NCBI GenBank assembly: GCA_041749335.1 | Contig: JBGTBM010000009.1 | Span: 179 to 64,178, forward strand | Direction: 5' to 3' | DNA length: 64,000 nt | From: Patescibacteria group bacterium | GTDB lineage: Bacteria > Patescibacteriota > JABMPQ01 | Part shown: piece after piece, positions 24,227-46,081 of the stretch | Position numbering within the stretch: the first letter of the stretch is position 1 | How the letters are laid out: every line of letters starts with the position of its first letter | Program-made: the position numbers and the translations under genes | Notes under the pieces: model-generated | What the model was told of the DNA's origin: nothing | The model's input: only the letters and a program-made list of their open reading frames with translations | Database searches by the model: none

Positions 24227-26743
24227 TTAACCATTGATCATTTTTTCGCTATTAAATAAATCACTAAATATTGATTTACTTTTAATGTTATTGGTCATAT
24301 TAGATATTTTTTTTTCGCTCTCATCTCTTTTTTTAATAATATTATTAATAAGATGTAATATTTTATCGTTGTTTAAACCATTTCTGCAATCATAATAATA
24401 TTCTATTTGATTATAGCTTTTCAATAGCTCATAATATTTATTTGCCCACCCTATCACCACGGCCGGAATTGAATTTTTATAAGCATGAATCACAGAATGG
24501 AATCTGGAAGCAATTATGAATTTTAACTGTTTTATAACATATTCCATTTCAATAGTGTTAAAATCATTGGGAATAATTGTAACATTCTCTGATTTATAAT
24601 TGCTCTTAATTTTTCTATTTATCTGATCATCTTCATTAGAATACCCGATTAAATAAATATAATATTTCCTCTTAATTAACTCATTAATTATTTGATTATA
24701 TAATGAAAAATATTTATTTTTATTAACTCGTTCCGCCACTCTAATATTTGGCACAATGCCTACAGAATTGCCGGATAATTTTAAAAATCTTAACTTATCA
24801 GGTTCTTTAAATAATTTTTTAATATTTTCCTCGTAATTACATCGCAACACTATGTCAAAACTTTTTTCCACATTGTTTTTAGTAAATTTCATTATCGCTT
24901 TATAGCTCTTATCCTCGCGTGCATAAATTTTTACTGGATATTTTAATAATATTTTCATTAATGGGAAAAGAATGATTTTTTGATAAATTTTATATTTGAA
25001 TGGACCAAAAGATTGCGGCAATAAATAATATTTTATTAAATATTTTCTCATCAATAATATATCGTGCATGCACATTAATGAACGATTGAATCCCCTTTGG
25101 GAAGATAAGGCATAACCGCTAACGTCGAAAGCATATTCGGTATTCTTTAATATATTGTTTATTTCATTCTGCTGTTTAATATTTTCTGTTTTATTTAATA
25201 TACCAGATTTTATACTTGAAATTTCCATTATCGCAAAGTTGTATGTATCTTTATAATCCAAGGTTTTTTTGTCGCGCGTTAATAAATATATATTATGTTT
25301 GGGATATTTTTTTTTCATTTCGCTAACCACAGAAAGAGTCATTGCTTCAGCTCCTCTGTTGCTAGTTCCTCCGCCCAAAATAATAATATTATTTTTTACA
25401 CCTATGGTTTTTTTGTTTAATTTATTTTTAATCAACAGTTCTCCTAAAATGAGAAGACCACCTTTAAATATTTTTAATATTTTTTTAATCCGTTGCTTAA
25501 TTTTATTTATTTTAATAAATAAACGTATTTTATAATATTGATTATCTCTTCCAAAATTTATATATTTTTCTTTTTTAATTAAATCTCTAATAATATTTTT
25601 ATCAAGCACGCTGTTATATGTAAAATTAGATAATTTGTTTTTTAGACTAAAATATTTAGCCTGTTTAAAATTTATAAGTTTCTCCTTTAATTTTTGTGAG
25701 GCTAATATTTTTTCAACATCTACTTTCTGTGAAATAAATTTATTTTTATATTGATCGTAAATCGTCCTACCCTTTTCTGTTCTAATAATAATATTTGATT
25801 TACCCAATTTACTTTCCTCTCCGGGAATATAGCAATCACCAAACGAAATATCAGCTTGTCGATTTAATTTATCATTGCAATATAGGCAGCGAGATAATTG
25901 ATAATATTGCTTTATAGAAATTCTTTCTTTCCGATCGATAAATATTTTTTGACCATCATTGAGTTCAATTTTTGTATTTCCCGGCCAACCGCCACATTCC
26001 TTTGTTCTAAAATCTAATATATTGATTTTATTGTTTTCTTTTATATATTTTTTCTTAAAATACTTATAAATATTAAGATTTAATGTGTTATCGCAAAAAA
26101 GCCCGAGAAAGAGAATATTTTCTTCTTTAATATTTAATTTTGAAAGAATGTTTTTTATAGCTGTAAATTGGCAGCCAGTGCCTACAATAATATATTTTCC
26201 AAAAGGATTGCGTTTAATTTCTTCAATTACGGGATAAATTGAAACCGGAATATATTTGGATTTTGCGGAATTTATAACTTCAGAAATTTGGTTAGTGGGT
26301 TTCAATTTGGGAATGTTATTTTTATCAAAATAATCATATTGCAGCGTAAAAGCTTTATCATAAATATTATCTCTTATTAGCTCTATAATAAGAGTAGTTA
26401 TTATTCCTCCACTAGCCGAATTTTTTCTAATTTTTATATCTTTAGTGTATGTAATGTATGAATCAAGGCAAGAACCGGCCAATTCAATTTCAGAAATATT
26501 ATTTTTAATAAATAAATTAAAAGGATCAAGATTATATCCCGGACAAATATTTTTACATAATCCACATTCTGTGCAAATTTTATTATCTATAACGGGTATA
26601 AATTGCCCCTTATTAAATATCATTGATATAGCGCCAACCGGACAGATAGCACGACATCCTTCGCATGATGTGCATAAATTCAGTTCAATAGTTTTTTTAA
26701 TCGTATTATTATTTCTCATTGTATTACTCTTTTCAAGTTTCAT
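24227..26743 (-). CDS. Fusion protein: 2x[4Fe-4S] ferredoxin + FrhB/FdhB-like (coenzyme F420 hydrogenase beta-like) domain + polysaccharide pyruvyl transferase (CsaB/WcaK family)
   Basis: The N-terminus carries CTSCEGCRAICP and CTECGLCKNICP, two CxxCxxCxxxCP motifs. The middle domain is FrhB-like. The C-terminal half has GGGTSNRGAEAM (GxxNxGDxA-like) and ASRFHSVIHAYKNSIPAVVIGWANKY, which are typical of pyruvyl transferases. Confidence 0.65.
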   Translation of the reverse strand: MKLEKSNTMRNNNTIKKTIELNLCTSCEGCRAICPVGAISMIFNKGQFIPVIDNKICTECGLCKNICPGYNLDPFNLFIKNNISEIELAGSCLDSYITYTKDIKIRKNSASGGIITTLIIELIRDNIYDKAFTLQYDYFDKNNIPKLKPTNQISEVINSAKSKYIPVSIYPVIEEIKRNPFGKYIIVGTGCQFTAIKNILSKLNIKEENILFLGLFCDNTLNLNIYKYFKKKYIKENNKINILDFRTKECGGWPGNTKIELNDGQKIFIDRKERISIKQYYQLSRCLYCNDKLNRQADISFGDCYIPGEESKLGKSNIIIRTEKGRTIYDQYKNKFISQKVDVEKILASQKLKEKLINFKQAKYFSLKNKLSNFTYNSVLDKNIIRDLIKKEKYINFGRDNQYYKIRLFIKINKIKQRIKKILKIFKGGLLILGELLIKNKLNKKTIGVKNNIIILGGGTSNRGAEAMTLSVVSEMKKKYPKHNIYLLTRDKKTLDYKDTYNFAIMEISSIKSGILNKTENIKQQNEINNILKNTEYAFDVSGYALSSQRGFNRSLMCMHDILLMRKYLIKYYLLPQSFGPFKYKIYQKIILFPLMKILLKYPVKIYAREDKSYKAIMKFTKNNVEKSFDIVLRCNYEENIKKLFKEPDKLRFLKLSGNSVGIVPNIRVAERVNKNKYFSLYNQIINELIKRKYYIYLIGYSNEDDQINRKIKSNYKSENVTIIPNDFNTIEMEYVIKQLKFIIASRFHSVIHAYKNSIPAVVIGWANKYYELLKSYNQIEYYYDCRNGLNNDKILHLINNIIKKRDESEKKISNMTNNIKSKSIFSDLFNSEKMING

Positions 26744-29999: not shown

Positions 30000-31523
30000 A
30001 TGAATAATAATAATAATAATAATAATAAAACTAAATTCATTAAATTTTTTATATATTTAATACCGATATTAATTTGTTTATGGTTATTAAATAAATATTT
30101 CGTTTTTACGGGAAATTTAGATTCTTCCTACGTTTTTGACAATCAACCTTCAATATTTAATGAACTACAACCCGAAACTCGCGTGCATAGCCCAGAAATA
30201 AATTTAAAAACCGGTGAAAAATATCAAAGGATTCAGAGTGAACTGGTTTATTTTTCATTAAATATACCCCGATCTTTTCAAAAAGCTAATTTTACTTTTA
30301 CTTTCGACGCTCCCTCACAGCCAATAATTAATGTCGGAATAAAAAGAGCTTATGAAGATACTAGTTATGAATTTAAAACTTTAAAAAATGACTATTTTGA
30401 TAAATTAAATAAATATTGGACCAAAACTTATGACAAAAATAATAAAATAGTCTTAATGCAAAATTTAAATAAAGAGAATGAAAATTATGATACGGTACAA
30501 GGTTTTATTAATAATCCGCCTCAAAATAAAAAGATTGGAACATATTATATCGATTTAACTGATAATAAAAAATTAGAAAATTATAAACCCTCCAATAAAA
30601 TTAACAATATTGAAACTCCCTTAAGGGGCAAACACGAAATATACACATATATTAAAGATGAAACTCTAGATTATAATTTCTCTTACTATGATTTAAATAA
30701 CGAAGAAGGCCTAGATCAATTTAATATTAATGTATATAAAGGTCTTAAACTCGTTTATTCAAATTTATCTGAAGATGATGGAAATAATAAAGCAAATAAT
30801 TTAGTTTCTGAGTTTAAACAATTCCAACTTAAAATTCCTGATTTGGCTGAAGGTAAATATTTAATAAAACTCGCTTTACCAGAAGATATTATAATAAATA
30901 AAATTACTACCAGGCAGAAATACACTGTATTTGCAAGCAGAATACGCACTGTTGGCAATCGATTAGAATTTAATAATGATTATTCTTTTTCAGAAGTTCC
31001 TGTTAAAATATTTTCGCCTAATTCAAATTTTCAATTAAGAACATTCGGCCCTGTCAGCGAACAAGAAATATTAATAGACAATCAAAGCATTACTTTATCT
31101 TCAAATAACTCATCGCTTATAAATCATTCGACGGGCAAAGAAAATAACGAATTAATAGAAATTAATGCTCCCCTTGGCAATATTTTATTATTGGCACCTA
31201 TCTTTGTTTTTAATAAAGAGCAATATTTTGATCCATATTTTAATATAAACCAAATAGCATTAAATACTGCAATATCAGATGAATTTGATTATATTATTGG
31301 TACCATTGACGATTATTTAACCCCACAAAAATATCGCAATTGGTATAAAAACGAAATATCATTTGAAACCGCTAACGCCTACACGGAAAATGGTGAATTG
31401 AAATTTGCAATTCAAATTCCCGGATTTAACAACATTGATGATGTAATTATAAAAGATATTAAAGTCAACTTGCAGACCGATAATATATTTAAAAGATTAT
31501 TTAATAAAATAAATATTTATTAA
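30000..31523 (+). CDS. Hypothetical TM-anchored extracytoplasmic protein with N-terminal poly-Asn tract
   Basis: MNNNNNNNNNKTK, then one TM helix, then a roughly 470-aa hydrophilic domain with no recognisable motifs. Confidence 0.4.
   Translation: MNNNNNNNNKTKFIKFFIYLIPILICLWLLNKYFVFTGNLDSSYVFDNQPSIFNELQPETRVHSPEINLKTGEKYQRIQSELVYFSLNIPRSFQKANFTFTFDAPSQPIINVGIKRAYEDTSYEFKTLKNDYFDKLNKYWTKTYDKNNKIVLMQNLNKENENYDTVQGFINNPPQNKKIGTYYIDLTDNKKLENYKPSNKINNIETPLRGKHEIYTYIKDETLDYNFSYYDLNNEEGLDQFNINVYKGLKLVYSNLSEDDGNNKANNLVSEFKQFQLKIPDLAEGKYLIKLALPEDIIINKITTRQKYTVFASRIRTVGNRLEFNNDYSFSEVPVKIFSPNSNFQLRTFGPVSEQEILIDNQSITLSSNNSSLINHSTGKENNELIEINAPLGNILLLAPIFVFNKEQYFDPYFNINQIALNTAISDEFDYIIGTIDDYLTPQKYRNWYKNEISFETANAYTENGELKFAIQIPGFNNIDDVIIKDIKVNLQTDNIFKRLFNKINIY
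30003..30029 (+). repeat. (AAT)9 trinucleotide microsatellite inside the start of a CDS
   Basis: aat repeated 9 times immediately after the ATG. Confidence 0.9.
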
Positions 31524-31526
31524 AAT

Positions 31527-31910
31527 ATGAAATACCTATTTAAAACATTTATTCATATTAAAAATTCAACGCTGCTTATTATAAATACAATATTTATCAC
31601 ATCTCTTTTTTCTTATCTTTTATTGTTTTTGTTTAATATATTCCTAGGGGATTTTATCACTAATTTTATAAATTTAAATTATTTATTATATCCACTTGGA
31701 ATATCTTTAATTATTTTAATTTTTAATAATAACAATACTTATATAAACCAAGAATCTAACACTTTAACCCGTTTATTTATTTCTATTATTGGAAGCTTTA
31801 TAATATTCTTTTTAGCTAAAGAGCTGGGAGTATTTAAGTGGTTATTGACTCTATCGATTTTTTTTATACTATTTTATTCTACAAAGAACTTCAATAACGA
31901 TTCGCAATAA
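31527..31910 (+). CDS. Small 4-TM membrane protein, GtrA-like candidate (lipid-linked sugar flippase)
   Basis: 127 aa with about 4 TM helices, immediately upstream of a GT-C-like gene and near a GtrB-like GT2. Confidence 0.35.
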   Translation: MKYLFKTFIHIKNSTLLIINTIFITSLFSYLLLFLFNIFLGDFITNFINLNYLLYPLGISLIILIFNNNNTYINQESNTLTRLFISIIGSFIIFFLAKELGVFKWLLTLSIFFILFYSTKNFNNDSQ

Positions 31911-31968: not shown

Positions 31969-33888
31969 ATGAATAAAGTATTTAATTTTAATAAAATTAT
32001 TTTATTAATCAAATATATTAATATTATTTTAATATCTACTACTTTTATATTTTTACTTTATATAATTTTTTATTTGTTTTTATCCTTTAATTATTTAAAT
32101 TTATTATTTACCCATTCTGACATTTTTCTTTTTTCTTTAATATTATTTGATTTATTTATTATTTTTATATTTATTAAAAATAATAAATCATTAAATATAA
32201 ATATTCTTTATTTATATATTGCATTATTTATTTTATTAGAAGTGCCCTTATTAATTAACGGCTTTAATAATTCTATCATCCTTTTTCAAGATTTAGATTA
32301 TAATCAGTGTTTTATTGTAATATTTCTCGGAATGATAATATATTTTTTTACTAACAAGGGTAAATATTTATCTAGCAAAATTTTTAATAATAATTTACTT
32401 ATTATTAATTCTAAAATTAATAATAAGTCTAAATATTCCATATTATTAATATTTTTATTATTTTTACTTATAAAACTTTTAATTCCTTATTTTTATCAAG
32501 GATCATATATTGATGAATATTTTCATATTTTACATGGTATAAATATTTTTAATAACCTTGAAACAAATTATATCCGGGGCCTGCCCATCACCTTTTTATG
32601 CGGCCTACTTATTAATTTATTTGGAAATGAACTTTTTATTTTAAAATTAATTCCGGCAGTTATCGGAATCATAAACTTTTTGTTGCTTTATAAAATATCA
32701 AAATATTTTTTTAATAATTACAAATATACTTCATTATTATTAGCAATTTACACAATTTCTCCTTGGATAATTTTTAATCATTTTTATATAAGGTTTTATG
32801 TTTTGTACGAATTATTATTATTATTATCAATTTATATTTATTTTATAGTCAATAATTCTATAGCGAAAAAAAGATTAGTTTTGTCGCTATTATCCATAAT
32901 CATTTTCATTGTATTTAATGTTTTATTGTTCTTTATAATTAATGATTCCGGCTTTTATATGATAATTATTTTTAATTGTTTTTTAATATTCTTTTTAGTT
33001 ATTAAAAGTATATTAATTTTATCAAATGCAATTATAAAAAATATTTTTAAATATTTTTTTTATATACTTATAACTTTTTTCTTTTTTTATTTATTATTTA
33101 ATAATAAATTTAATTATTTAATAAAAGTAAATCTTGCTAACACCAACTATGAAATAAATAAATATGAATATTTCTTTTTTTATAAAAATATCGGCTTTAC
33201 AATATTATTTATTTTATCAATTTTTATCGCTTTAAAACATTTAAATAAAAAAGGTGAAATCAAATCTCAAAATATTATATTTATAGCTTCCTTTTTAATT
33301 CTGATAATACATTTAATATCTTCAAGTGACTTGCAACTAATTCGAAGTATAGTATACTTTATCCCCTTGTTTTATTTAGTTGCAATTTATTCTCTTAAAC
33401 ATTTAAATATTAAATCTATCTATAAATACCCAATAATGCTATTTTTATTTTTAACTATATTCAACAACTACCCAAGTAAATTTTTTAGCGATGGGCCTTA
33501 TATACCTTCAGAAGTTTTTTACCGAAGATTTAAAGAATCTTTTGACTTTATTAAAAATAATTGTGACGATTATTTCATAATTAATTTGACAAAAAATCAT
33601 TATGTTTCTTCTTTCTATGATATTAACGAATATTATCTTATTAATTCAATTTATTATAACAATCCATTGAGTGTTAATTATGATAATAAATTTATTAATT
33701 ATGAAAAATATAAAAATAAAATAAGAAAAAATGAGAATATATGTTATTTATATTCTCATTTGTGGTCAGTTAATAATAAAAATAAAACCTATCAATCTAT
33801 CCGTAGATACCTTAAAAATAATTATGATGATAAAATATCCTTTGGTAATTTTGAAGTGTTCATTTTTTTAAATAAAAATAATAATTAA
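31969..33888 (+). CDS. GT-C family membrane glycosyltransferase-like protein (ArnT/PMT/YfhO-like)
   Basis: 639 aa with many TM helices. YIDEYFHILHGINIF is DE-motif-like in an early loop. It converges on the GtrB-like GT2. Confidence 0.4.
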   Translation: MNKVFNFNKIILLIKYINIILISTTFIFLLYIIFYLFLSFNYLNLLFTHSDIFLFSLILFDLFIIFIFIKNNKSLNINILYLYIALFILLEVPLLINGFNNSIILFQDLDYNQCFIVIFLGMIIYFFTNKGKYLSSKIFNNNLLIINSKINNKSKYSILLIFLLFLLIKLLIPYFYQGSYIDEYFHILHGINIFNNLETNYIRGLPITFLCGLLINLFGNELFILKLIPAVIGIINFLLLYKISKYFFNNYKYTSLLLAIYTISPWIIFNHFYIRFYVLYELLLLLSIYIYFIVNNSIAKKRLVLSLLSIIIFIVFNVLLFFIINDSGFYMIIIFNCFLIFFLVIKSILILSNAIIKNIFKYFFYILITFFFFYLLFNNKFNYLIKVNLANTNYEINKYEYFFFYKNIGFTILFILSIFIALKHLNKKGEIKSQNIIFIASFLILIIHLISSSDLQLIRSIVYFIPLFYLVAIYSLKHLNIKSIYKYPIMLFLFLTIFNNYPSKFFSDGPYIPSEVFYRRFKESFDFIKNNCDDYFIINLTKNHYVSSFYDINEYYLINSIYYNNPLSVNYDNKFINYEKYKNKIRKNENICYLYSHLWSVNNKNKTYQSIRRYLKNNYDDKISFGNFEVFIFLNKNNN

Positions 33889-34817
33889 TTTTCAATTACT
33901 TCCTTGACAGAGTAATTTGCTCTATTTTTATTATAATATGTCTTTATGGCAATATCAGCTAAAATTCCTGAAATAAATAGCTGTAGACCAACTAAAACTA
34001 AAAATATTGCTACTAACGGCCAGATACTATTTTGCAAAGAGATTTTTCCTAAAATTCTGGTAATGGCTAGATAAATACCAAGGATAAATCCCCCCCCGCC
34101 TATTAATATTCCAAAACTGCCAAATAAATGCAGCGGCCGGGCAGAAAATTTTCTCCAAAACCAAACCATCCACATATCAAGAAAACCTTTTACAATCCTC
34201 CTTAAATTATATTTGGTTTTGCCAAATTTTCTTTCACGATGTTCCACTTTTACTTCACCCACTTTAAAGCCTTTCCACTTCAATATTGCGGGAATAAACC
34301 GGTGCATTTCTCCATACAGATCAAGATCATCAAAACATTCTTTCCGATAGGCCTTTAACGTACAGCCTGAATCGTGAATTTTATCTTTGATTAATAATCC
34401 CCTTAGTATATCAGCTCCGCGTGAAATAATTTTTTTTATAAAAGGATCTCGTCTTTTATAGCGCCACCCTGATACCAAATCATACCCTTCATTCAATTTA
34501 CTGATTAATTTACTGATTTCCGAGGGCGGATTTTGTCCATCACCATCAAGCGTAATTATTATCTCTCCTCTAGCTCTCTTGATGCCGGCATCTAGCGCGG
34601 CCGTTTGCCCAAAATTTTTCCTAAAATTTATTATTTTTATCGAATATAATTTTTTTAATTTTTCTAGGGTATTATCAATTGATCCGTCATTAACAAATAT
34701 TACTTCAAAATCCAAAGCGATCTTTTTCATTTCGTAAATAATTTCCCGATGCAATGAAATAACATTTTCTTCCTCATTAAAAACTGGCACAATAATTGAA
34801 TATTTTGGTTTGTTCAT
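33885..34817 (-). CDS. Polyprenyl-phosphate glycosyltransferase (GT2, GtrB/CsbB/ArnC-like) with 2 C-terminal TM helices
   Basis: YSIIVPVFNEEENV...VIFVNDGSIDNT...TLDGDGQNPP plus two C-terminal TM helices. Confidence 0.8.
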   Translation of the reverse strand: MNKPKYSIIVPVFNEEENVISLHREIIYEMKKIALDFEVIFVNDGSIDNTLEKLKKLYSIKIINFRKNFGQTAALDAGIKRARGEIIITLDGDGQNPPSEISKLISKLNEGYDLVSGWRYKRRDPFIKKIISRGADILRGLLIKDKIHDSGCTLKAYRKECFDDLDLYGEMHRFIPAILKWKGFKVGEVKVEHRERKFGKTKYNLRRIVKGFLDMWMVWFWRKFSARPLHLFGSFGILIGGGGFILGIYLAITRILGKISLQNSIWPLVAIFLVLVGLQLFISGILADIAIKTYYNKNRANYSVKEVIEN

Positions 34818-34818
34818 A

Positions 34819-36150
34819 TTATTTTATTAATTCACTCTTAATAATACCGATAATATATTTTATATTTAAATTTATTTTTAATTTTAATCCCAATTTTTTT
34901 CTTAAATAATATATCTCAAATATCGCAACTACCAGCTGTGCAAATACTGTTACGATTACTGCACCCAATGCTCCATAAAATGGTATAAATATTAAATCTA
35001 GTATTACATTAACTGCTGCACCAAATAATACAATGCGTGTTGTGTATTTAGCGTACTTTGTAGCTATTAAAAAAGTTCGACAGACACTAAATATTTTTAT
35101 TAATAAAAGTGGTAGTAATACTTTAAGTAATATAATTGATGCTTGATATTGAGGAAATAATTTTTCAATTAATGAATCTGATAATACAAATAAAAGTAAG
35201 GTGGTTGGAAAAACAAATATAATCGACAAGGATAATATTTTTGTAAATAATTCCTGGAGTTTTTCTTTCCTTCCATCAATAAAATAAGTAGTAATCACCG
35301 GTGCGAATACAGCACTAATAAAAGTAAATATTACTACAAATGGCATCTGAAATATTTTGTCAGCTACATTAAAATAAGCAACTTCGGCATTATCACAATA
35401 TTTTCCAATTATTATAATATCTATTCTAGTATATAAAAAATATGTCACGCTCGTTATACTAATCGGAATTGCATATTTTATAATTCTTTTTCCTGTATTA
35501 ATAATATAAATCTTTTGTTCTTTTATATATCTTAAATATTTATAATCGATTATTATAAACCCAAATATTACAGAAATTAATATTCCAAATATTGTTATTA
35601 ACAAAACATTAAGAATTTCTAATTTTTGATATTTGATCAATGCCAGCAATAATGATATTTGAATAATTCTAGATATAAAAAAAGTTAGAGTAGAATATTT
35701 CAAATTTTGGTAACCTTTAATAATACTTTCAACTATTGCACTTGAACAAGATATAATTATAAAAGCAGGTGCGATTTTTAATAAAATTGTAAGTTCCTCT
35801 CTATTAAATATTTTTGAAATATAATCTTTTAATATAAATAAAACAATTCCCAATATTAAAGAAATTATAATTGAATAAATTATACTAGTTATGATTAAAG
35901 ATCTTGTTTCTTTTTTTTCAATTTCCTTGTTTGATAAAGATTCAGCGATATATTTTGATGTAGACTCACTTAATCCGTTTACTACAAAGTACATAAAAAA
36001 GAAGGTGATTGAATAAAATAATAAATATAACCCATATTTATCAGGGTCCCAAGTATTAGATAAAATAAAAAAAACTACAAATATTGAAATATTTGATATT
36101 ATTATTTGAATAATTTTCCAGAAACTATTCCTCGCTATCTTTGATATCAT
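34819..36150 (-). CDS. wzx: Wzx-type flippase (MOP superfamily), second copy
   Basis: 443 aa with about 12 TM helices. Confidence 0.65.
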   Translation of the reverse strand: MISKIARNSFWKIIQIIISNISIFVVFFILSNTWDPDKYGLYLLFYSITFFFMYFVVNGLSESTSKYIAESLSNKEIEKKETRSLIITSIIYSIIISLILGIVLFILKDYISKIFNREELTILLKIAPAFIIISCSSAIVESIIKGYQNLKYSTLTFFISRIIQISLLLALIKYQKLEILNVLLITIFGILISVIFGFIIIDYKYLRYIKEQKIYIINTGKRIIKYAIPISITSVTYFLYTRIDIIIIGKYCDNAEVAYFNVADKIFQMPFVVIFTFISAVFAPVITTYFIDGRKEKLQELFTKILSLSIIFVFPTTLLLFVLSDSLIEKLFPQYQASIILLKVLLPLLLIKIFSVCRTFLIATKYAKYTTRIVLFGAAVNVILDLIFIPFYGALGAVIVTVFAQLVVAIFEIYYLRKKLGLKLKINLNIKYIIGIIKSELIK

Positions 36151-36153
36151 CCT

Positions 36154-37023
36154 TTACCTCTTCCATTTAGATAAATCCTTTTTAAATAATATTTCCAACT
36201 GTTCAATATCCTTAATAAATTTTTTTATAAGGTATTTTCTAGTACAATTTTCCATATTTCTATAAACAATTTTTCTTGTCGATAAGTTAATAATCTTTTC
36301 TTTAAAACCGCTTTCTTTTATTTTTTTGATAACGTTTGATAAATTAAATAATATCATTGCTTGAGATAAATATTTCATTAATGATAATATTAATACGTTA
36401 TTAATCTCCCTTGAAGAATTTACTTTTTCATTTATTTTATTTGGAATAAACTCATCATCAACTTCTAAAAATTTATATAATTTTTTTATTTCTATTAAAG
36501 GATTTTGTTTAATATCTTCTATAAATAAAAATATAATTTGTTTTTTATCAAAATATTTTAACCATCTATTAATGTGAAAACTATATAATCCTTTATCAAT
36601 ATACTCCTCTTCTAATCTTACGACATCTTCAAAATCTCTTTTTTCTTTCTTAAAATAATTTTTATACATCAAATACTGTGAATAAGCCCTATCTATCGGA
36701 TTTCTTAAACACACAATTATTTTTATATCAGGAAATTTTATTTTTATTCTTTTTGGTGCTTCTTTATCAATCAAATATTGAGTTGAGAACTCTCCCTTTA
36801 CGCAATTATTTTTACAATGCTTAAAATGTTTTGAATACCACTTAAAAGTTTTATTGAAATTTCTATTTTTAAAATTAAAAATATATGATGATTTTTTATT
36901 AAAATATTGAACTTCTTTTGGTTCAGATAATTCAATCTCGGGATGTTGATCTAGCATTTTTGATAACCATGTCGTGCCTGCTTTTTCTGCTCCTATGCCA
37001 ATAAAGTTAATTTTTAAATCCAT
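36154..37023 (-). CDS. Sulfotransferase (PAPS-dependent family)
   Basis: 5'-PSB motif IGIGAEKAGTTWL and 3'-PB motif CLRNPIDRAYSQY. Confidence 0.75.
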   Translation of the reverse strand: MDLKINFIGIGAEKAGTTWLSKMLDQHPEIELSEPKEVQYFNKKSSYIFNFKNRNFNKTFKWYSKHFKHCKNNCVKGEFSTQYLIDKEAPKRIKIKFPDIKIIVCLRNPIDRAYSQYLMYKNYFKKEKRDFEDVVRLEEEYIDKGLYSFHINRWLKYFDKKQIIFLFIEDIKQNPLIEIKKLYKFLEVDDEFIPNKINEKVNSSREINNVLILSLMKYLSQAMILFNLSNVIKKIKESGFKEKIINLSTRKIVYRNMENCTRKYLIKKFIKDIEQLEILFKKDLSKWKR

Positions 37024-37051: not shown

Positions 37052-37756
37052 CTAACTATATAATTTTTTTCCTACAATAATAAATCTTCTAAGAAATGTT
37101 AATCTCAATTTATATATTTTTGAATTAATAGAATTGCCCTTGTAAAACAATGTTAAAACTTTAATTAATTTACTAATTATTATTCCAATTACCCCCTCAA
37201 GGAATGAATAAAAATATTTATATTCAAATGTATTAAGATTATTATTATAAAATATTTGAATAATTCGCCTAACAGTCGTTATATTATTATGAGTATAATC
37301 GCAATTAAAAAAATCATTTCTCCAATCTAAATAATCTGGACTAAGTATTATTATCATCCCTCTTTTTTTTAATACTCTTTCTGATTCTGAAATAAATGTT
37401 TCTGCCTCATTAGAATTATTTAAGTGCTCATATACATCAAAACATAAAATTATATCATACGATTCATCTATTTCATTCAATGTTGGTATTTTATAATTAC
37501 TTACCTTTCGGACACCAATATTCTTCATTAATTTATTCATATTAATATTTGGCTCAACAACATCGTAATTTTTATATCCATTTTTGAGAAATACTTTTGC
37601 CAAATCTCCCTTCCCTGGTCCAATTTCTAAAATATCACAATTCTTACTTCTTAAATATTTACAAATATATCTAAAATCTCTCTTAGTTTTTCTATTATGT
37701 AATAATTTACCAATTTTAGTAGATTTGCTTTCTGCAAAGTGGTCAAAATATGGCAT
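37052..37756 (-). CDS. Class I SAM-dependent methyltransferase
   Basis: Motif I ILEIGPGKGDL and post-I ILCFDVYEHL. Confidence 0.7.
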   Translation of the reverse strand: MPYFDHFAESKSTKIGKLLHNRKTKRDFRYICKYLRSKNCDILEIGPGKGDLAKVFLKNGYKNYDVVEPNINMNKLMKNIGVRKVSNYKIPTLNEIDESYDIILCFDVYEHLNNSNEAETFISESERVLKKRGMIIILSPDYLDWRNDFFNCDYTHNNITTVRRIIQIFYNNNLNTFEYKYFYSFLEGVIGIIISKLIKVLTLFYKGNSINSKIYKLRLTFLRRFIIVGKKLYS

Positions 37757-38813: not shown

Positions 38814-38994
38814 ATCTAAATTTTACATATCGTATATATATTCCACTTCTTGAAGGTGTTAATTTTTTTACAAATTCAAATTTAACTTTACATCTACTGC
38901 CCATTTAAATTATTAATTTATTATATATATCTTTTAAATCTTTTTCTTAAATCATAGATCTTTTTCCAATTTTAATGGTTATTTTATTAATATC

Positions 38995-39420
38995 CTATTG
39001 GATTATCTGAAATATTTTATCAGCTGCATTAAAATAAGCAACTTCGGCATTATCACAATATTTACTAATTATTATTATATCAATTCTAGTATATAAAAAA
39101 AATATGTGATACTAGTGATGCTTATGAGTATGGCATATTCTAATATTTTCTTTCCCACTCCACTAATAAAAATTCTTTGCGCCTGAAGATTATTCAAATA
39201 TTAATGCCTTCATTTTTTGACAATGATTGTGCGATATATTTGGCAATTGATTCACTTAAACCATTAACAATAAAATACATAAAAAAGAAAGTGATTAAGT
39301 AAAAAGAGTAAATAAAGCCCATATTTATCCGGACTCCATGCGTTAGATAAAATATAATAAATTAGCAAATAATGCTAAATTGTATATTATTATTTGTATT
39401 ATTTTCCAAATACTGTTTTT
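38995..39420 (-). pseudogene. Degenerate remnant of a Wzx flippase gene (internally deleted paralog of 34819-36150)
   Basis: 39001-39140 aligns to 35340-35470 and 39225-39420 aligns to 35935-36130 at roughly 80-85% identity. No ORF survives. Confidence 0.75.
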
Positions 39421-40573
39421 AAGAATTATTGTCGACATTATTAATTAATTTTTTATAATTTATTTCTAGATCCTTACAAATTTTCGAAATATTAAAATTG
39501 TTTATAGTGTGTTTTTGTCCATTTAATCCTATACAATCTCTTAATTCCGTATTTTTTAATAATTCTATTGTTTTTTTTGCGTATTTTATTGGATCATTTT
39601 CAATAATAATATCCTGATTGTTTTTAGCGTCAATTCCATATGCACCTATGCTCGTAGTTATTACCGGCATCCCCGCAGCCATAGCTTCAAGAATTTTAAC
39701 TTTGATTCCACTTCCCCATGTTATTGGTGCCACAAAAACCTTATAAAAAGTAAAATGATCTTTAACATCACTAACTTCTCCACAAAGTATTATATTTTTA
39801 CTTTTCATCATTGATATTTTTTCATAATATTTTCCAATAATATAGAATTTTGCCCGTGGTATTTTTAATAAGATTTCAGGAAATATATTCTTAATGAAAT
39901 AATTTACAGCATCAATATTCGCATAATGTTTAAAATTTCCGATAAATAATAATGAATCTTCTTTAATAATATTTCTTTTTTTATTATACTCATTGACCTT
40001 TAGGCCTATTGGGCAAACTTGGATGTTTAAATTATTATTTTCCTTTTTTATTAATAGTTTATCGTCTTTACTTCTCGTTAATATTAACTCCGCATGCTTT
40101 AATATCTGCATTTCTACTTTTTTAACAATCCAATATTTTATTAAATTTAATATTTTAGATGTACCCTTGCTATATTGATATCGAGTCTGCCTACTGCCAA
40201 ATAATACATCTACCTCACTTATTACTATTTTTTTGTGTTTTATAAAAGGAGAATATAACCCACATAATGTATATTCTATATGGACTATTTGAATATCGTA
40301 AATTTTAATAATATTATTTATTTCTAATAAAAATTCAGTAAAATAATTTTTAATGAATTTTATAGGATTTTTATGAAATTTTAATTTATTAAAAACTTTT
40401 AAATAGGCACAATACTTCATTAGATTATCCATTTCTTCCTTTTCATAGCCCTCTATCCGTGAAATAAAATAGATATCATTTTTTTTTGATAATTCTTTTA
40501 TTAAATTAAGCATATACACCCCCCCTCCATGAAATCTTGAAGGAAAATGAGTTGAAACAATTAATATTCGCAT
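39419..40573 (-). CDS. Glycosyltransferase family 4
   Basis: MRILIVSTHFPSRFHGGGVYM at the N-terminus and a C-terminal GT-B domain. Confidence 0.75.
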   Translation of the reverse strand: MRILIVSTHFPSRFHGGGVYMLNLIKELSKKNDIYFISRIEGYEKEEMDNLMKYCAYLKVFNKLKFHKNPIKFIKNYFTEFLLEINNIIKIYDIQIVHIEYTLCGLYSPFIKHKKIVISEVDVLFGSRQTRYQYSKGTSKILNLIKYWIVKKVEMQILKHAELILTRSKDDKLLIKKENNNLNIQVCPIGLKVNEYNKKRNIIKEDSLLFIGNFKHYANIDAVNYFIKNIFPEILLKIPRAKFYIIGKYYEKISMMKSKNIILCGEVSDVKDHFTFYKVFVAPITWGSGIKVKILEAMAAGMPVITTSIGAYGIDAKNNQDIIIENDPIKYAKKTIELLKNTELRDCIGLNGQKHTINNFNISKICKDLEINYKKLINNVDNNS

Positions 40574-40616
40574 ATATTTCCTATTTCTTTTATAATTTTA
40601 TATTATTTTAATTAAT

Positions 40617-41400
40617 TTACTTTAATTTACATACAAATATTGTCCCCGCACAACATATCCATGGAGATATTGACTTTAATATTCCTTCTAATTTATTTCC
40701 GATTCCATTTAATTCATATTTTTTATTTTTTGCTCGTAGAAATGGGAAGTCCATATAAAAACCCATACTTTTAGGTTTTTTAAAATCATCGGCTGCAATT
40801 TCAACAATTTGAAAACCATTCCTAAGTAAAATCTTTTTAAATTTATTTTTTGTAAAACGATATTCGCCAAAAACCATTTTACATCCATTGATTTTATTTA
40901 ATAAAACAAATATATTTTTTATATGATTTATAAATAATCTTCTGATAAAATTTTGAGTTGGAATTGTTATAATCAGATAACCATTTTTTCTTAAAACCCT
41001 TCTCATTTCATCCAAGGCCCCTTGGGGACCCTCCTTAAAATGTTCCACCACTCCTAATGAAATTATTACATCAAAATAATTATTTGGATATTTTATATCT
41101 AATATATTTCCTTTTTCAATTTTAATATTACTTCCAGATAATTTTATTTTTTTTATATATAGCATCATCACTTAACTCTATCCCTTGAATATCATATCCT
41201 TGACTATTTAAATAGAATACCCACCTTCCTAATCCGCATCCCGCCTCTAATATTTTATGAGTTTTTTTTAAATACTTATTAAATATATCATCTACATTTT
41301 GGTATTTACACAATGCAATTCCTTCATTTATTGATTGACCCAACCAACATTGGCCTAAAGTATCTCTATTATTTTCTTTTTGATAATGTATATAAGTCAT
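40617..41400 (-). pseudogene. SAM-dependent methyltransferase disrupted by a frameshift at an A8 (plus-strand T8) homopolymer
   Basis: ORF 41128-41400 carries motif I ILEAGCGLGRW. ORF 40617-41171 carries FDVIISLGVVEHF and LRKNGYLII. The frame switches within the T8 run at 41147-41154. Confidence 0.65.
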
Positions 41401-42374
41401 TTTCTCACTACCTTTCTTCGTTTAATAATATATTTAGGTATCAAACAAAATGCGTTAAAATTTGCTTTTACTAAAATTATAGTCATTTTCCATATTCCGA
41501 TATTTTCTTTTAATTTTTCAACCGATTCATTTTTATTAAAAAAATAAGAAATTTTTAATTTAATATTTCGTAAAGGAAATAATAAAAGATCGAATAATGC
41601 TAGATTTTTAATAGCTGTCAAAATTGAATTCCGCTCACAATAAAAAGATTTGAAGGGAGATGCTACTCCTCCTGTTTTAGAATGAAGGTGGATTAACTTT
41701 GCATTCGCAGATAGATATGATATATAACCCATACTTCGCATCCTAAAACCAATGTCATAATCTTCTGTATATGCAAAAAAATCTTCATCAAAAAATTCTT
41801 TATCTCTGGCAATTATTTTTTTCACCATCTCCCTTTTAAAAAGCGCTGCAACTCCACCAGCAGCAAAAACCTCAGAATCTGTGTTAAGTTCTGGAATTTG
41901 TTCATCGGTCATTCCATATCCCATTGATACCCCCCCCTTTTTATTAATATGTATGCTTTTACTAAACTCTAATCCTGCGTTTTGAATCGTCTTCCCATCA
42001 CTAAAATATGCCTTACTTGTTACAGAGCCAATTAAATTATTTTTTTGAGCAGTTTTAATTAAATTATTTAACCAATTTTTCTCAACAATAGTATCATTAT
42101 TTAAGCAAATTATATATTTTATGTTTTTATCAGTAAGGGCATTCTTAATTCCTTCATTATTACCTTTGGCATATCCATAATTTTTATTAAGTTTAATTAT
42201 TTTTACTTTATTAAAAAATTTTTTTACAAAATTTACGCTATCATCTACAGAACCATTATCAACCAGATATATTACAAAATTTTTATATGTTTGATTGTAC
42301 AAAGAATTCAAACAATCATTTAAATATTCTTTACCATTCCAATTAACAATTATTATTGCTACGTTATCTCTCAT
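41397..42374 (-). CDS. Glycosyltransferase family 2
   Basis: VAIIIVNWNGKEYL...VIYLVDNGSVDDS. Confidence 0.8.
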   Translation of the reverse strand: MRDNVAIIIVNWNGKEYLNDCLNSLYNQTYKNFVIYLVDNGSVDDSVNFVKKFFNKVKIIKLNKNYGYAKGNNEGIKNALTDKNIKYIICLNNDTIVEKNWLNNLIKTAQKNNLIGSVTSKAYFSDGKTIQNAGLEFSKSIHINKKGGVSMGYGMTDEQIPELNTDSEVFAAGGVAALFKREMVKKIIARDKEFFDEDFFAYTEDYDIGFRMRSMGYISYLSANAKLIHLHSKTGGVASPFKSFYCERNSILTAIKNLALFDLLLFPLRNIKLKISYFFNKNESVEKLKENIGIWKMTIILVKANFNAFCLIPKYIIKRRKVVRK

Positions 42375-42439
42375 TATTTTAATTTCATCTACTATTATTT
42401 CAAATTTATTTATAAATATTAATTATTTATAATTTAAGT

Positions 42440-43738
42440 TTATATTTCATTAATAGTATATAAATATTTTCCGTTTTTTAAACAATTAATATTTTTTACA
42501 AATTCCCAATCTATTTTACAGCTTTGTCCCATCACTTTTTTAATTGATTTTTCGATTCTATTTCTGTTCTCTTCAAATAATGTCTTCCTTTCTAAAACAA
42601 CCTTAATAAGTATTTTATTATAATTCTTTTGAATTACTTGAAATTTTTTAATATAGCCTTGATTATAAATTACCCCTATGAAATGTATAAAATATTCCGC
42701 GGGTATAATTTTACCCTCTTTCGTCGTAAATATACTTATTTCCCTACCCTCAACTTTTTCTAAATAACTCCAATTTTCACCTCTAATACCAATATCACCT
42801 ATTTCATATCTAATAAAAGGCATTGAGTAATTATTTAAATTAGTGATATAAATCTTATTATTTTCTAATACTTCTAAATAATTATTCCAAAAACTCAATT
42901 TCAATCCTTGATTAGTATTATCATCACACGCCATATCCCCAACTTCCCTTGATCCATATCGATTAAAAACTTTTGTTTTAAAAACTTCTTCGATCTTCTG
43001 TTTTATTTCTGGATATAGCGTACCAGCGGAAGTTAAAATTCCTTTAGGACTATACATTTTAAAATTATTTCTTTGAATAAATTTAGCGAATTCAGACATT
43101 GACTGAACATATGCCTCTACCCAAACCGGCTTAAACTTATTCCAATCTTTTACAAATTTTCTCATATTCTTTTCTGACATTTTAAAACTATTTAATTCTT
43201 TTCTATTATATAAAAAGTTTTTTAAACGCGTTGAGAACATTTCCTTGTCCAGTAATAAATCCCTCTCTGATCCCCATAAGCGCAATTCTCTATACCCCAT
43301 ATCTTGCTTAGCAAAAGTCTTAAAATATATTTTGTTAGCAATATTCCAATCACTATAATTTTTATCTTAAAGAAATCTTACCGGCTCACCTGTGCTTCCA
43401 CCAGAAGTATTTTCGTAGAATCCTCTTTTTTTGTAATCTTTAGAATATAAATTACTCCCTTCGCTTCTAATTATTTCTTTTGTAAGAATGGGAATTTTAT
43501 TGAAATTTTCCAAATATACTTTATTATTTTTAACAACTCCGGCCACTGCTAAAATCTTATGATAATATAGAACATTCTCGTAGGCATGCTTTAGTATTTT
43601 TTTAAGCTTTTCCTTTTGATATTTCTCCTTTTCCGATAAAGAAAAATTATTAATTTTTTTTATTTCTTTTATGTTTCCAGAAATTTTACTGCCAGCTAGA
43701 TAAAGGAAGAAATATATTATTGGTTTACGCCAGTTCAT
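42440..43738 (-). pseudogene. CapK/PaaK-like adenylate-forming enzyme (phenylacetate-CoA ligase family) interrupted by an in-frame TAA
   Basis: The upstream ORF ends ...TSGGSTGEPVRFL* (AMP-binding motif). The same reading frame continues after the TAA at 43367-43369 (minus strand) as DKNYSDW... into ORF 42440-43300. Confidence 0.65.
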
Positions 43739-44864
43739 CTTTTTTAATTATATCCCTATATATAAGAAAATACTTATTGGCCATATTATCCCAGCTCATT
43801 TTTTCAGCCTTATTTCTACTTTCCCACTTCATTTTTTTAAGTCTTTGCCTATCTGTATATAGATTTTCCAGACTTTTATATATGTCATTTATATTTTTTT
43901 TATTTATAATAATGCCGTTTCTCTTATCGATTAATTCTCTTGTGCCTCCGGTATCAGTTGAGATTATTGCCAACCCAGATGACATTGCCTCTAATAATGA
44001 ATTACTCATCCCTTCATTAAGAGAAGGAAGCACAAATACATCAGATTTTTTATAATAATCATTTATATTATTATGATCAATTGTACCTAATATATTAATT
44101 TTATCTTTGAGGCCAGATTTAATTACTTTTTCTTCTATTTTTTCCCTTAAATTGCCATCTCCTATTATAATCAAGTCACTTTCTTTATATTTCTTATTGA
44201 ATTTAATAAACGCATCAATTAAGTAATTTATTCCTTTTCTTTTAATAAGACGCGATGTTGAAATTATAGTAAATTTATTATTTTCCCTTTTTTGAGGTTT
44301 AAATTTTTCAAAATCAATCCCATTATAAATTACTTCGAAATTTTGTTCTGCGCAGCTCCTTTCCGCTAATATTTTTAATCCTTCAGAATTAGTTACTACT
44401 CGTTTTGATCTTTCCCAAATATTTTTACTTAATCTCTGAAAAATTATTTTATCCAACCAATAAAATCTTTTGTTATAAAAAGGAACATCGCTTCCGCGTA
44501 AACTGACAATATAAGGTAAGTCAAGTTTCATTGCAATATAGCCACATGGAATTCCAAAAAAAGCATGGACTAAATCAAAATTATTTTTTTTATTTAATTT
44601 TTTACAAAATAAATAAGCCCTAAGGGTATAATTTAATATATCTTTATTGCTCTGATAGTGTAAATTTCCCTTTTTACCGATATTTAAAAAGTATATTTTG
44701 ACATTGTCGCTAATATTTTTCTCTTGATATTTGCCTATTGATGAAGTGACTAAAGTAATATTAATATTTTTTTCTTTGGCCAATTCTTTTAATAAATAAT
44801 AAGTCGCATTGCCCGCGCCTCCTCCGAGTGGTGGATATTCATAGTTCAACATTAAAATATTCAT
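43725..44864 (-). CDS. Glycosyltransferase family 4
   Basis: MNILMLNYEYPPLGGGAGNAT at the N-terminus and a C-terminal GT-B domain. Confidence 0.8.
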   Translation of the reverse strand: MNILMLNYEYPPLGGGAGNATYYLLKELAKEKNINITLVTSSIGKYQEKNISDNVKIYFLNIGKKGNLHYQSNKDILNYTLRAYLFCKKLNKKNNFDLVHAFFGIPCGYIAMKLDLPYIVSLRGSDVPFYNKRFYWLDKIIFQRLSKNIWERSKRVVTNSEGLKILAERSCAEQNFEVIYNGIDFEKFKPQKRENNKFTIISTSRLIKRKGINYLIDAFIKFNKKYKESDLIIIGDGNLREKIEEKVIKSGLKDKINILGTIDHNNINDYYKKSDVFVLPSLNEGMSNSLLEAMSSGLAIISTDTGGTRELIDKRNGIIINKKNINDIYKSLENLYTDRQRLKKMKWESRNKAEKMSWDNMANKYFLIYRDIIKKDELA

Positions 44865-44895
44865 AAAATAAATTTATTAATATCTAAACATTATT

Positions 44896-44930
44896 AAAAA
44901 AAGCCGAATTTGTCTATAATTCGGCTTATT
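44896..44930 (-). terminator. Rho-independent terminator downstream of the GC-rich lipoprotein gene
   Basis: agccgaatt-tgtctat-aattcggct hairpin with a T-run on the minus strand (A7 on plus). Confidence 0.6.
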
Positions 44931-44938
44931 AACATTTT

Positions 44939-46081
44939 TTATGGTTGAAATTTTGAAAAGTAATTATAAATTTTACTTTCCGACCAGGCTTCATTATACA
45001 CAACAATTTCATCAATTAAACCCTGGTAATACCTTAAGGTATTACCATCAGTTCCAATTTTGATTATTCCCCCGGGTACAAAAGAAGCTATAGTCTTGCT
45101 GTTTTCCAACATTCCATTAATAATAATGCGTAGATTAGATCCATCGAAAGTAAAGGCCAGATGGGTCCAATCATTATTAATCACATCGGAAGTTGAAAGC
45201 AACCCTGATTGCATTGTAGCAACCCATTTAATAGAAACGCCATCATTCCACATCATTAATCCAGGCAAGTCATCATTCTTCCAAAAAACATATTTCTTAT
45301 CATTAACAGTAGATGGCTTAACCCATGCCATTATAGTATAACCACTGCTGATCGAATCCAAGCTCGCCGAATCCGCCACCTCAATATAACCATCAACTCC
45401 GTTAAATTGAGCCGAACAGCTATCTTGATCTTCACCCGGAACAAAATCCCCGGCATTGCAAGCCAAACTCGCTCCGCCGTATGCCACGCCATTATTGCCA
45501 TTTCCGGAAAGATCGGCCACGTACGTAGGCCAGGTGGTCCAGGCATCGCCGAACTGAAACAGCAGCTTTAGGCTGCCGCAATCCTCGTCAATCTGCCCGT
45601 CGCAGTTATTATCCAAGCCGTCACACACCTCATGACCGCCCATTGAAACACTGCACTGGTATTCACAGCCATCGGCCGGATCATCGTTTTGATCCCACCA
45701 AGTATGCGAAGTTCCTGATACCAAACATTCTGCGACCTGACATTGCCCCAAGATACATTCCGCAGTTGCATTCGGCAGATTGCAGACATTGCCGCAATAA
45801 CCGCAGTTATTGGGATTATTCTGCAAATCAAAGACCTCATCAATCTGGCCGTTGCAGTTATTGTCCGCCCCATCGCAGATTTCCACACCGCCGTTGGTCG
45901 GTACGCACGCGTCATTGTTATTATTGACGTTGGTATCCGGCTGAACTTCTGCGTCCGTCATCCCCGAATCATTATTATGATTCGGCGGCAAAAGTCCGGT
46001 AGCATCAAAAACACATCCCGACAGCGTAATCGCCATTGCAAGCAGATATACGAGATTCAATTCAAATCTTTTCAAAACCAT
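44939..46081 (-). CDS. Secreted lipoprotein with MopE-like Cys-rich metal-binding repeats and a C-terminal LamG/concanavalin-like domain
   Basis: Lipobox LSGC. Repeats CDGADNNCNGQIDE and CDGLDNNCDGQIDEDC. LamG-like C-terminus. GC content is visibly higher than the surrounding DNA, producing many spurious overlapping ORFs in the track. Confidence 0.6.
   Translation of the reverse strand: MVLKRFELNLVYLLAMAITLSGCVFDATGLLPPNHNNDSGMTDAEVQPDTNVNNNNDACVPTNGGVEICDGADNNCNGQIDEVFDLQNNPNNCGYCGNVCNLPNATAECILGQCQVAECLVSGTSHTWWDQNDDPADGCEYQCSVSMGGHEVCDGLDNNCDGQIDEDCGSLKLLFQFGDAWTTWPTYVADLSGNGNNGVAYGGASLACNAGDFVPGEDQDSCSAQFNGVDGYIEVADSASLDSISSGYTIMAWVKPSTVNDKKYVFWKNDDLPGLMMWNDGVSIKWVATMQSGLLSTSDVINNDWTHLAFTFDGSNLRIIINGMLENSKTIASFVPGGIIKIGTDGNTLRYYQGLIDEIVVYNEAWSESKIYNYFSKFQP

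Follow-up and report, generated by a model that had tools for sequence, protein, structure and literature searches.

Probable recent decay of a frameshifted class I methyltransferase gene in a surface-polysaccharide island of a Patescibacteria genome

Introduction

In AT-rich genomes, the commonest way for an accessory gene to die is a single-base frameshift in an A-run. The described cases closest to the gene reported here are the frameshift pseudogenes of the insect endosymbionts Buchnera and Blochmannia, in which a single-base poly(A) or poly(T) indel lies in an otherwise intact, conserved ORF; such A/T-homopolymer frameshifts are regarded as a typical beginning of gene erosion where genomes are AT-rich (PMC3017870). 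The affected endosymbiont genes are core genes with tracts of 9-12 A's, and their rescue by slippage has been proposed (PMC3017870). Transcript slippage at A/T runs rises exponentially with run length and consists mostly of insertions, and frame-restoring transcript errors were not seen in Buchnera (PMC5574713). In tssM of Citrobacter rodentium, a tract of 11 A's is associated with about 20-25% frameshifting (PMC4256274). In both this gene and its Yersinia pseudotuberculosis counterpart, the poly-A run falls a few codons before a premature stop and the remaining part of the protein lies in a different frame (PMC4256274); the site, at which nucleotides are added, is functionally required.

Intragenic homopolymers can also act as reversible switches. 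In the phase-variable capsule and LOS genes of Campylobacter jejuni and its relatives, a homopolymer lies inside a polysaccharide-decorating gene (PMC6321876, PMC8437040), and the gain or loss of one repeat unit toggles between full-length and truncated protein. These tracts are overwhelmingly poly-G/C of at least 7 nt and vary between isolates. Catalogues of repeat-driven phase-variable genes have used cut-offs of at least 7 for poly-G/C and at least 10 for poly-A/T (PMC6321876).

Here we describe a methyltransferase gene that is split at a run of eight A's in a 64-kb window (the whole stretch of DNA analysed, 64,000 nt) of a Patescibacteria metagenome-assembled genome. It shares with the endosymbiont pseudogenes the single-base indel in an otherwise intact, conserved ORF, and differs from them in its shorter tract (8 nt), its host lineage and the nature of the gene, which is predicted to be an accessory glycan-tailoring gene. 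The two-frame layout resembles that of tssM, but the run has 8 A's rather than 11, one nucleotide fewer or two more would be needed to restore the frame and, unlike in tssM, nothing here indicates a need for two products. As in Campylobacter, a change of one unit separates a full-length from a truncated protein in a gene likely to decorate a polysaccharide; here, however, the run is an ordinary and unconserved A8, and G8, G8 and G7 tracts in neighbouring genes come nearer to the Campylobacter pattern than the A8 does. We consider it probable, at roughly two chances in three, that the gene is a recently inactivated class I SAM methyltransferase pseudogene, part of a module in decay within a surface-polysaccharide island, hypervariable and low in GC, of a CPR genome.

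The island and its genomic setting

The region is flanked by housekeeping genes (SecA, SecDF, AspRS, PyrG, ValRS and L9), and the best named matches of the AspRS are to Patescibacteria (CPR), the nearest relative being 79% identical and encoded on a 551-kb ENA contig. Between about 13 and 53 kb lies a surface-glycan region with many GT2 and GT4 glycosyltransferases, two intact Wzx-type flippases, a Wzy_C protein, a sulfotransferase, a pyruvyl-transferase fusion, a second methyltransferase and sugar-nucleotide genes. Within it, the GC content falls from about 36% to about 25% (24.6%) at 20-44 kb. The contig of the nearest relative is collinear with the window, at about 75% nucleotide identity, from SecA to a Laminin_G gene (window 64000 to 45350). 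Collinearity ends at about 45 kb, where the next gene, a GT4, is just 35% identical, and the methyltransferase thus sits at the edge of a strain-variable island. Scans for tRNAs and Rfam families found no RNA genes in the window. SecA leaves the end of the window in an open frame, and we therefore rejected the idea that it is truncated.

A methyltransferase gene divided between two frames

The gene is encoded by the following segments:

41128 to 41400, minus strand: N-terminal methyltransferase ORF of 90 aa; contains ILEAGCGLGR (SAM-binding motif I) and, in GIELS, the acidic residue of beta2
41147 to 41154, minus strand: A8 run on the coding strand (T8 on the plus strand), the likeliest place of a +1-nt insertion
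40617 to 41171, minus strand: C-terminal methyltransferase ORF, 184 aa, in the +1 frame relative to the N-terminal ORF
40617 to 41146, minus strand: C-terminal 175 codons, without further stops, with SLGVVEHF, the post-II motifs and the family-specific C-terminal region

The 90-aa ORF, whose ATG overlaps the stop codon of the upstream GT2 gene (ATGA), reads KILEAGCGLGRWVF...GIELSDDAIYKKNKIIWK before its stop, with the C-terminal end ...KILEAGCGLGRWVFYLNSQGYDIQGIELSDDAIYKKNKIIWK. The 184-aa ORF carries the rest of the fold (...FDVIISLGVVEHFKEGP...), and its reading gives the +1-frame continuation ...IKLSGSNIKIEKGNILDIKYPNNYFDVIISLGVVEHFKEGP... past the junction. Rather than lying in one uninterrupted reading frame, the methyltransferase domain is thus spread over two, the N-terminal one ending at a premature TAA (41128-41130), with the Methyltransf_11 domain divided between them near profile position 33 of 95. 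This bears out the observation, made in a first-pass annotation of the sequence, that motif I and the downstream methyltransferase blocks lie in different frames: a one-base repair joins the 90-aa and 184-aa ORFs into a single protein of 260 aa.

That repair can be made in the run itself. Removal of one A (A7) yields the single 260-aa ORF and addition of two (A10) yields one of 261 aa, whereas A8 and A9 are both out of frame, the A9 variant running at once into a TAA. Homology confines the frame change to an interval of about 18 nt, from Ala80 (GCT, in the N-terminal frame) to the conserved Lys of 'IKLSG' (in the C-terminal frame). Because the A8 run is the sole homopolymer inside that interval, we place the frame change there, as the parsimonious reading rather than a proven one. 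The first-pass annotation had put the switch exactly in the T8 at 41147-41154; the run does stand out as the only homopolymer at that point, but homology resolves the position only to those 18 or so nucleotides.

A naturally split, two-subunit enzyme can be set aside, since the 183-aa product that would start at an internal ATG of the C-terminal frame lacks motif I and the homologs all have the lengths of single ORFs.

Relationship to intact methyltransferases

The repaired protein matches Pfam Methyltransf_11 (PF08241) with E=9e-19 and 68.3 bits (cut-off 21.2). The match aligns residues 51-144 with profile positions 1-95 of 95, and it spans the junction residues 83-85. Class I methyltransferases from the PDB align with the repaired protein without a break over residues 32-146, and the whole 260-aa protein aligns end to end with 22 intact homologs of about 265 aa. 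For the methyltransferase, all NCBIfam models score below their cut-offs. Once repaired, the protein has a complete Rossmann core and shares with the Methyltransf_11/23/25 families (PDB 3l8d, 1ve3) motif I, GxGxG, and the acidic residue after beta2; G54, G56 and G58 of the motif are invariant in the alignment of 23 sequences. It differs from those families in belonging to an uncharacterised subfamily of about 265 aa whose N-terminal (W19, C31) and C-terminal (ELN..G...SPW) extensions are conserved, and in that the gene as found is split between two frames.

An intact single ORF, which the first-pass annotation had proposed to look for among orthologs, appears to be the rule among the homologs, judged by their lengths. 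In a database of 5.8 billion proteins, the sole 100% match is the 183-aa C-terminal fragment from the same genome, which has entries from two sources, NCBI (contig of 135,588 bp) and Logan; the 90-aa N-terminal fragment has no record as a called gene. All 176 of the 176 other matches have typical single-ORF lengths (about 225-383 aa), and none is closer than 58% identity. The closest homolog is intact and stands in a GT2-MTase-Wzx arrangement. Among the 80 loci that a scan of GTDB representatives yielded, identity nowhere exceeded 50%.

Of the 64 columns in which conservation among the other members of the family reaches 85% or more, the repaired protein, taken over its whole length, keeps 58. 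Retention in the intact homologs ranges from 74 to 100%, and that of the closest intact relative (77%) is below that of our protein. By this count the methyltransferase has lost no more conserved residues than intact homologs have, and it contains no second lesion; nothing in the alignment directly indicates that constraint on the methyltransferase itself has been relaxed.

The window encodes a second methyltransferase (37052-37756), which is 34% identical to the first over 113 aa. This distance led us to reject redundancy through a recent paralog as an explanation for the loss.

Lesions in neighbouring genes

The genes around the methyltransferase are as follows:

43725 to 44864, in the same module as the methyltransferase: GT4 glycosyltransferase, intact
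42440 to 43738, minus strand: capK-like adenylate-forming enzyme (PaaK/F390-synthetase-like), interrupted in frame by TAA (43367-43369) and so the operon's second disrupted gene
41397 to 42374, minus strand: GT2 glycosyltransferase, directly upstream of and translationally coupled to the methyltransferase, intact; G8 at 41930-41937
39419 to 40573, minus strand: GT4 glycosyltransferase, downstream of the broken methyltransferase, intact; G7 at 40519-40525
38833 to 39438, minus strand: relic with pieces of a wzx flippase paralog, in three frames and with an internal deletion, and a capK-like tail with stops

The capK-like gene, two genes upstream of the methyltransferase, runs in one frame through ...GGSTGEPVRFL, a stop and DKNY.... 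Its TAA is aligned with a Lys in an uninterrupted homolog, the alignment running straight across, and both halves match PaaK/F390-synthetase-type models. A reassigned TAA codon was considered and rejected, since TAA is the stop codon of 43 of the 54 genes in the window.

Damage is more extensive in the relic, which coincides with the only sizeable gap without ORFs in the island (38814-39418). The wzx paralog survives there as pieces corresponding to aa 1-29, 16-76, 205-240 and 237-269, in three frames; about 128 codons have been deleted, and in one piece of 99 nt identity to the intact wzx gene is 93%. Joined to these remnants are the final ~70 codons of a capK-like paralog, which contain three stop codons.

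In transcription order, the genes form two tandem modules. The first consists of GT4, capK (stop), GT2, the methyltransferase (frameshift), GT4 and wzx' (relic), and has lost its flippase; the second consists of capK' (relic), GT4, methyltransferase-2, the sulfotransferase, wzx and GT2. Pairs of a GT2 gene followed by the methyltransferase recur at 10 of 50 homologous loci, including the contig of the closest homolog. This recurrent pairing, together with the domain assignment, is our reason for predicting a role in glycan methylation.

All detectable gene damage in the 64 kb falls within 4.6 kb around the methyltransferase, and most of it lies off homopolymers. Elsewhere in the window we found no split or disrupted genes, those matched to families spanning the expected profile length. 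Of the explanations that the first-pass annotation had offered for the split, these independent, non-homopolymer lesions nearby (the capK-like TAA and the wzx/capK-like relic) favour decay. Its disruption relative to full-length homologs and the independent lesions in functionally linked neighbours both fit a pseudogene.

The A8 run and the fidelity of the assembly

The A8 run is not special. Among the A/T runs of at least 8 nt in the 64-kb window, which number 40 and are fewer than in shuffled sequence, 35 are of exactly 8 nt and five are T9. Dinucleotide-preserving shuffles contain 85.8 +/- 13.9 T8 words, whereas the window has 45. Within the island of low GC content (20-44 kb), 23 A/T runs of at least 8 nt were observed where 26.9 are expected, and none of at least 10 nt where 5.1 are expected. 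The run is thus compositionally ordinary, with no over-representation.

The tract is also unconserved. The junction of the closest homolog reads GCAGTAGATATTGCAAAAAGC, with only five A's (A5), and the Lys-Lys found at our junction is absent from all 22 of the 22 aligned homologs. Relative to these, our protein has a unique one-residue (Lys) insertion at the run, and the position of this extra Lys exactly at the run implies that the tract has slipped before. From the alignment, the tract seems to be lineage-specific, having apparently grown by 3 nt and then by 1 nt.

Homopolymers are the classic place for indel miscalls, and the break might in principle be an error of sequencing or consensus: in that case the gene would be intact in the real genome, with A7 (or A10), and one base would have been miscalled in a low-GC, possibly low-coverage region. 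The single lesion in the methyltransferase, without further erosion, fits such an error. To address it we compared the window with a Logan assembly of run SRR28170473, made by an independent k-mer assembler, possibly with reads that the NCBI assembly also used. The Logan contig is 100% identical across 7,024 bp (window 39034-46057), including the A8 run and the capK-like TAA. If the two assemblies do share one read set, a systematic read-level error would be common to both. In addition, genes in the window contain 38 other runs of at least 8 nt (five T9 and two C8 among them), and the frame is unbroken at every one. Nor are the lesions nearby, a base change that gives TAA and a relic damaged in several ways, homopolymer errors; they show that real disruption is concentrated here. 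On the strength of the Logan identity and the intact frames elsewhere, we regard a sequencing error or assembler artefact, which the first-pass annotation had listed among its alternatives, as unlikely.

Possible phase variation and poly-G tracts

The same annotation had suggested a phase-variable switch. As a contingency locus, the A-run would be ON at A7 or A10 and OFF at A8 or A9, with slipped-strand mispairing moving between them and the assembly having caught the OFF state; the result would be subpopulations with methylated and unmethylated surface glycan. Several features are in keeping with this. The run lies within the frame of a putative surface-glycan tailoring gene, where a change of one nucleotide toggles between full-length and truncated protein, the downstream frame is perfectly kept, and the extra Lys points to an earlier change in tract length. 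Three neighbouring glycosyltransferase genes, moreover, carry G8, G8 and G7 tracts that are over-represented and meet the poly-G/C cut-off, which raises the prior for repeat-mediated switching in the locus.

The run itself, however, does not behave like a contingency repeat. It falls short of the poly-A/T cut-off of 10 (PMC6321876), A/T runs of its length class are as frequent as composition predicts or rarer, and the 36 other A/T runs of at least 8 nt inside genes are all in frame. It is conserved neither in the closest homolog nor in any of the 22 that were aligned. The adjacent capK-like gene is off by a nonsense codon, which slippage could not reverse. An alternative allele is likewise absent from public protein and metagenome collections: JGI metagenome contigs, searched with the exact flanks and a variable gap of 6-11 nt, contain no tract-length variants, and no variant allele appears among the protein-database matches, the proteins being singletons in a collection of 15 billion sequences. 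Our literature search found no published description of phase variation or contingency loci in Patescibacteria, the one paper in which both terms occur being concerned with archaeal methylation, and no paper on run SRR28170473. A switch at the A8 run, and with it a population divided by methylation of the surface glycan, seems to us unlikely.

The poly-G tracts deserve description in their own right. On the coding strand of three island glycosyltransferase genes there are G8 tracts at 41930-41937 and 34090-34097 and a G7 tract at 40519-40525; the first lies in the GT2 gene adjoining the methyltransferase, and all three are in frame. For poly-G runs of at least 8 nt in the island, 2 were observed against 0.07 expected, and 0.7% of dinucleotide shuffles reach 2; for runs of at least 7 nt, 3 were observed against 0.39 expected, and 0.3% of shuffles reach 3. 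Comparably AT-rich loci of other organisms have 0-1 such runs per 20 kb. GGG makes up only 11% of the island's Gly codons, and the Gly runs encoded by the poly-G tracts are only partly conserved in homologs.

As contingency repeats, the poly-G tracts are better candidates than the A8. That the A8 and the three poly-G tracts together form a repeat-based phase-variable set, by which a CPR cell would stochastically switch the decoration of its surface glycan, strikes us as very unlikely. If it were true, attachment to the host or escape from phages could be governed by such variation of the surface in the episymbiotic Patescibacteria (CPR) radiation.

Possible slippage and recoding

A real frameshift need not silence a gene completely. 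Low-level expression of the methyltransferase might persist if RNA polymerase slipped on the run, leaving out one A or adding two, or if tRNA-Lys slipped by +1 on AAA-AAA-A. Re-pairing of the tRNA-Lys within the run would yield exactly the homologous ...YKKIKLSG, the downstream frame is open and conserved, and tssM of Citrobacter rodentium (PMC4256274) and the poly(A) genes of insect endosymbionts (PMC3017870) provide precedents. The documented runs are, however, longer than ours (9-12 A's in the endosymbionts, 11 in tssM). Insertions dominate at A/T runs, whereas a single-base deletion is needed here, and the slippery site is found in no homolog. The classical -1 ribosomal frameshift goes in the wrong direction: we rejected it for the A_AAA_AAA sequence because the C-terminal frame is +1 and a -1 shift would enter the third frame. 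Nor is there the signature of programmed recoding, a conserved slippery site combined with a two-frame layout, since the 22 aligned homologs lack the run and the other matches have single-ORF lengths. We think it highly improbable that expression is maintained in this way.

Discussion

Recent decay of the methyltransferase gene is, in our view, the best explanation for the split. The intact enzyme would have been co-translated with the upstream GT2 and would have methylated a sugar unit built by the module. Replication slippage in the A-run encoding Lys-Lys may then have converted A7 to A8. Translation would now end at the TAA six codons past the run, giving a 90-aa stub with only the first third of the Rossmann fold and leaving the remaining 175 codons, which hold most of the catalytic domain, untranslated in frame. 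In this scenario, one of two tandem glycan modules is decaying: a deletion together with several frameshifts has cost it the flippase, and a nonsense mutation the capK-like gene. These losses suggest that selection on the remaining tailoring enzymes has probably been relaxed. The frame past the run has stayed open and conserved, and for that reason the frameshift is likely to be evolutionarily young. We infer the direction of the mutation (A7 to A8), the relaxed selection and the substrate from this pattern.

The main evidence against simple decay is that the methyltransferase is free of erosion beyond the frameshift. This may mean that the event is recent, that the gene is still under selection or that the break is an error; the single-lesion pattern also fits a reversible switch or a gene expressed through slippage. 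Three genes of the module being intact (GT4 at 43725-44864, GT2 at 41397-42374 and GT4 at 39419-40573) also weighs against decay.

The feature is real but ordinary; by itself the finding matters little. In annotation, the two ORFs should be combined into a single entry, a methyltransferase pseudogene with a frameshift; the capK-like pair should likewise be entered as one gene interrupted by an internal stop, and the stretch at 38.8-39.4 kb as a relic region. For the biology of these bacteria, the locus offers a snapshot of the turnover of a CPR surface-polysaccharide island, in which one of two modules appears to be undergoing dismantling by deletion, nonsense mutation and slippage, and the poly-G tracts in the neighbouring glycosyltransferases provide a place to look for phase variation in Patescibacteria.

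The low-GC island and its gene content

The surface-glycan island spans approximately positions 20000-44900, over which GC content is ~25% and drops as low as 17.8% between 32 and 34 kb, as compared with ~36% in the flanks, and it is densely packed with glycan-synthesis genes. Collinearity of the window with its nearest relative (ENA ERZ4787356, locus L083; ~75% nucleotide identity) stops at ~45 kb, and the island's content is therefore lineage-specific. Genes of note in the glycan region and the island are:

36154-37023, minus strand: sulfotransferase (Sulfotransfer_1, E=2e-23), glycan region
24227-26743, minus strand: fusion protein (838 aa) joining an FrhB-like 4Fe-4S/F420-hydrogenase-beta domain to a polysaccharide pyruvyl transferase, glycan region
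21668-23320, plus strand: ORF without Pfam match
30000-31523, plus strand: ORF without Pfam match
31527-31910, plus strand: ORF without Pfam match
31969-33888, plus strand: ORF without Pfam match

Taken together, the predicted sulfotransferase and pyruvyl-transferase fusion hint at a sulfated, pyruvylated surface polysaccharide. The four ORFs that had no Pfam match at E<=1e-4, three of which are long (550, 507 and 639 aa), sit where the island's GC content is lowest, and may encode membrane polymerase- or ligase-like proteins.

Broken genes and an ORF-free stretch

Two further loci contain disrupted genes, and one of them shares a repeat with the intact wzx flippase gene of the island:

38833-39438, minus strand: gene relic in a 605-bp "intergenic" gap, comprising pieces of a wzx paralog and a capK-like tail
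35345-35443 and 39005-39103: 99-nt direct repeat, 93% identical, common to the intact wzx gene and the relic
42440-43738, minus strand: capK-like adenylate-forming enzyme (PaaK/F390-synthetase-like) with a single in-frame TAA at 43367-43369

In the relic, the wzx pieces are spread over three frames, with ~128 codons deleted internally; their fusion partner is the tail of a capK-like paralog, which contains three stop codons. Outside the 99-nt repeat the relic is only ~78% identical to the intact wzx gene, versus 93% within it, a difference in sequence identity that points to recent gene conversion, or recombination, over that patch. The Logan contig, an independent assembly of run SRR28170473, ends at 39034, inside the repeat copy at 39005-39103. 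For the capK-like gene, alignment places a Lys of an intact homolog opposite the TAA, and the called ORFs of 123 aa and 286 aa are two halves of one gene.

Near the window start, the 895 bp at 496-1390 contain no ORF >42 aa and neither a tRNA nor an Rfam match, which is unusual against a coding fraction of ~95% for the window.

Homopolymer content

A/T homopolymers of at least 10 nt are absent from the island (20000-44000; zero versus 5.1 expected from shuffles), and T8 words across the whole window are about half as frequent as shuffles predict. This scarcity fits a model in which slippage-prone runs are selected against in coding sequence. Poly-G runs, in an island of 25% GC, are strongly over-represented (at least 8 nt, 2 versus 0.07 expected; at least 7 nt, 3 versus 0.39 expected):

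41930-41937: G8, coding strand of an island glycosyltransferase gene
34090-34097: G8, coding strand of an island glycosyltransferase gene
40519-40525: G7, coding strand of an island glycosyltransferase gene

All three tracts are in frame and reach the poly-G/C cut-off of 7 for phase-variable repeats (PMC6321876); homologs keep the corresponding Gly runs in part only. These tracts could be contingency repeats of a CPR bacterium.
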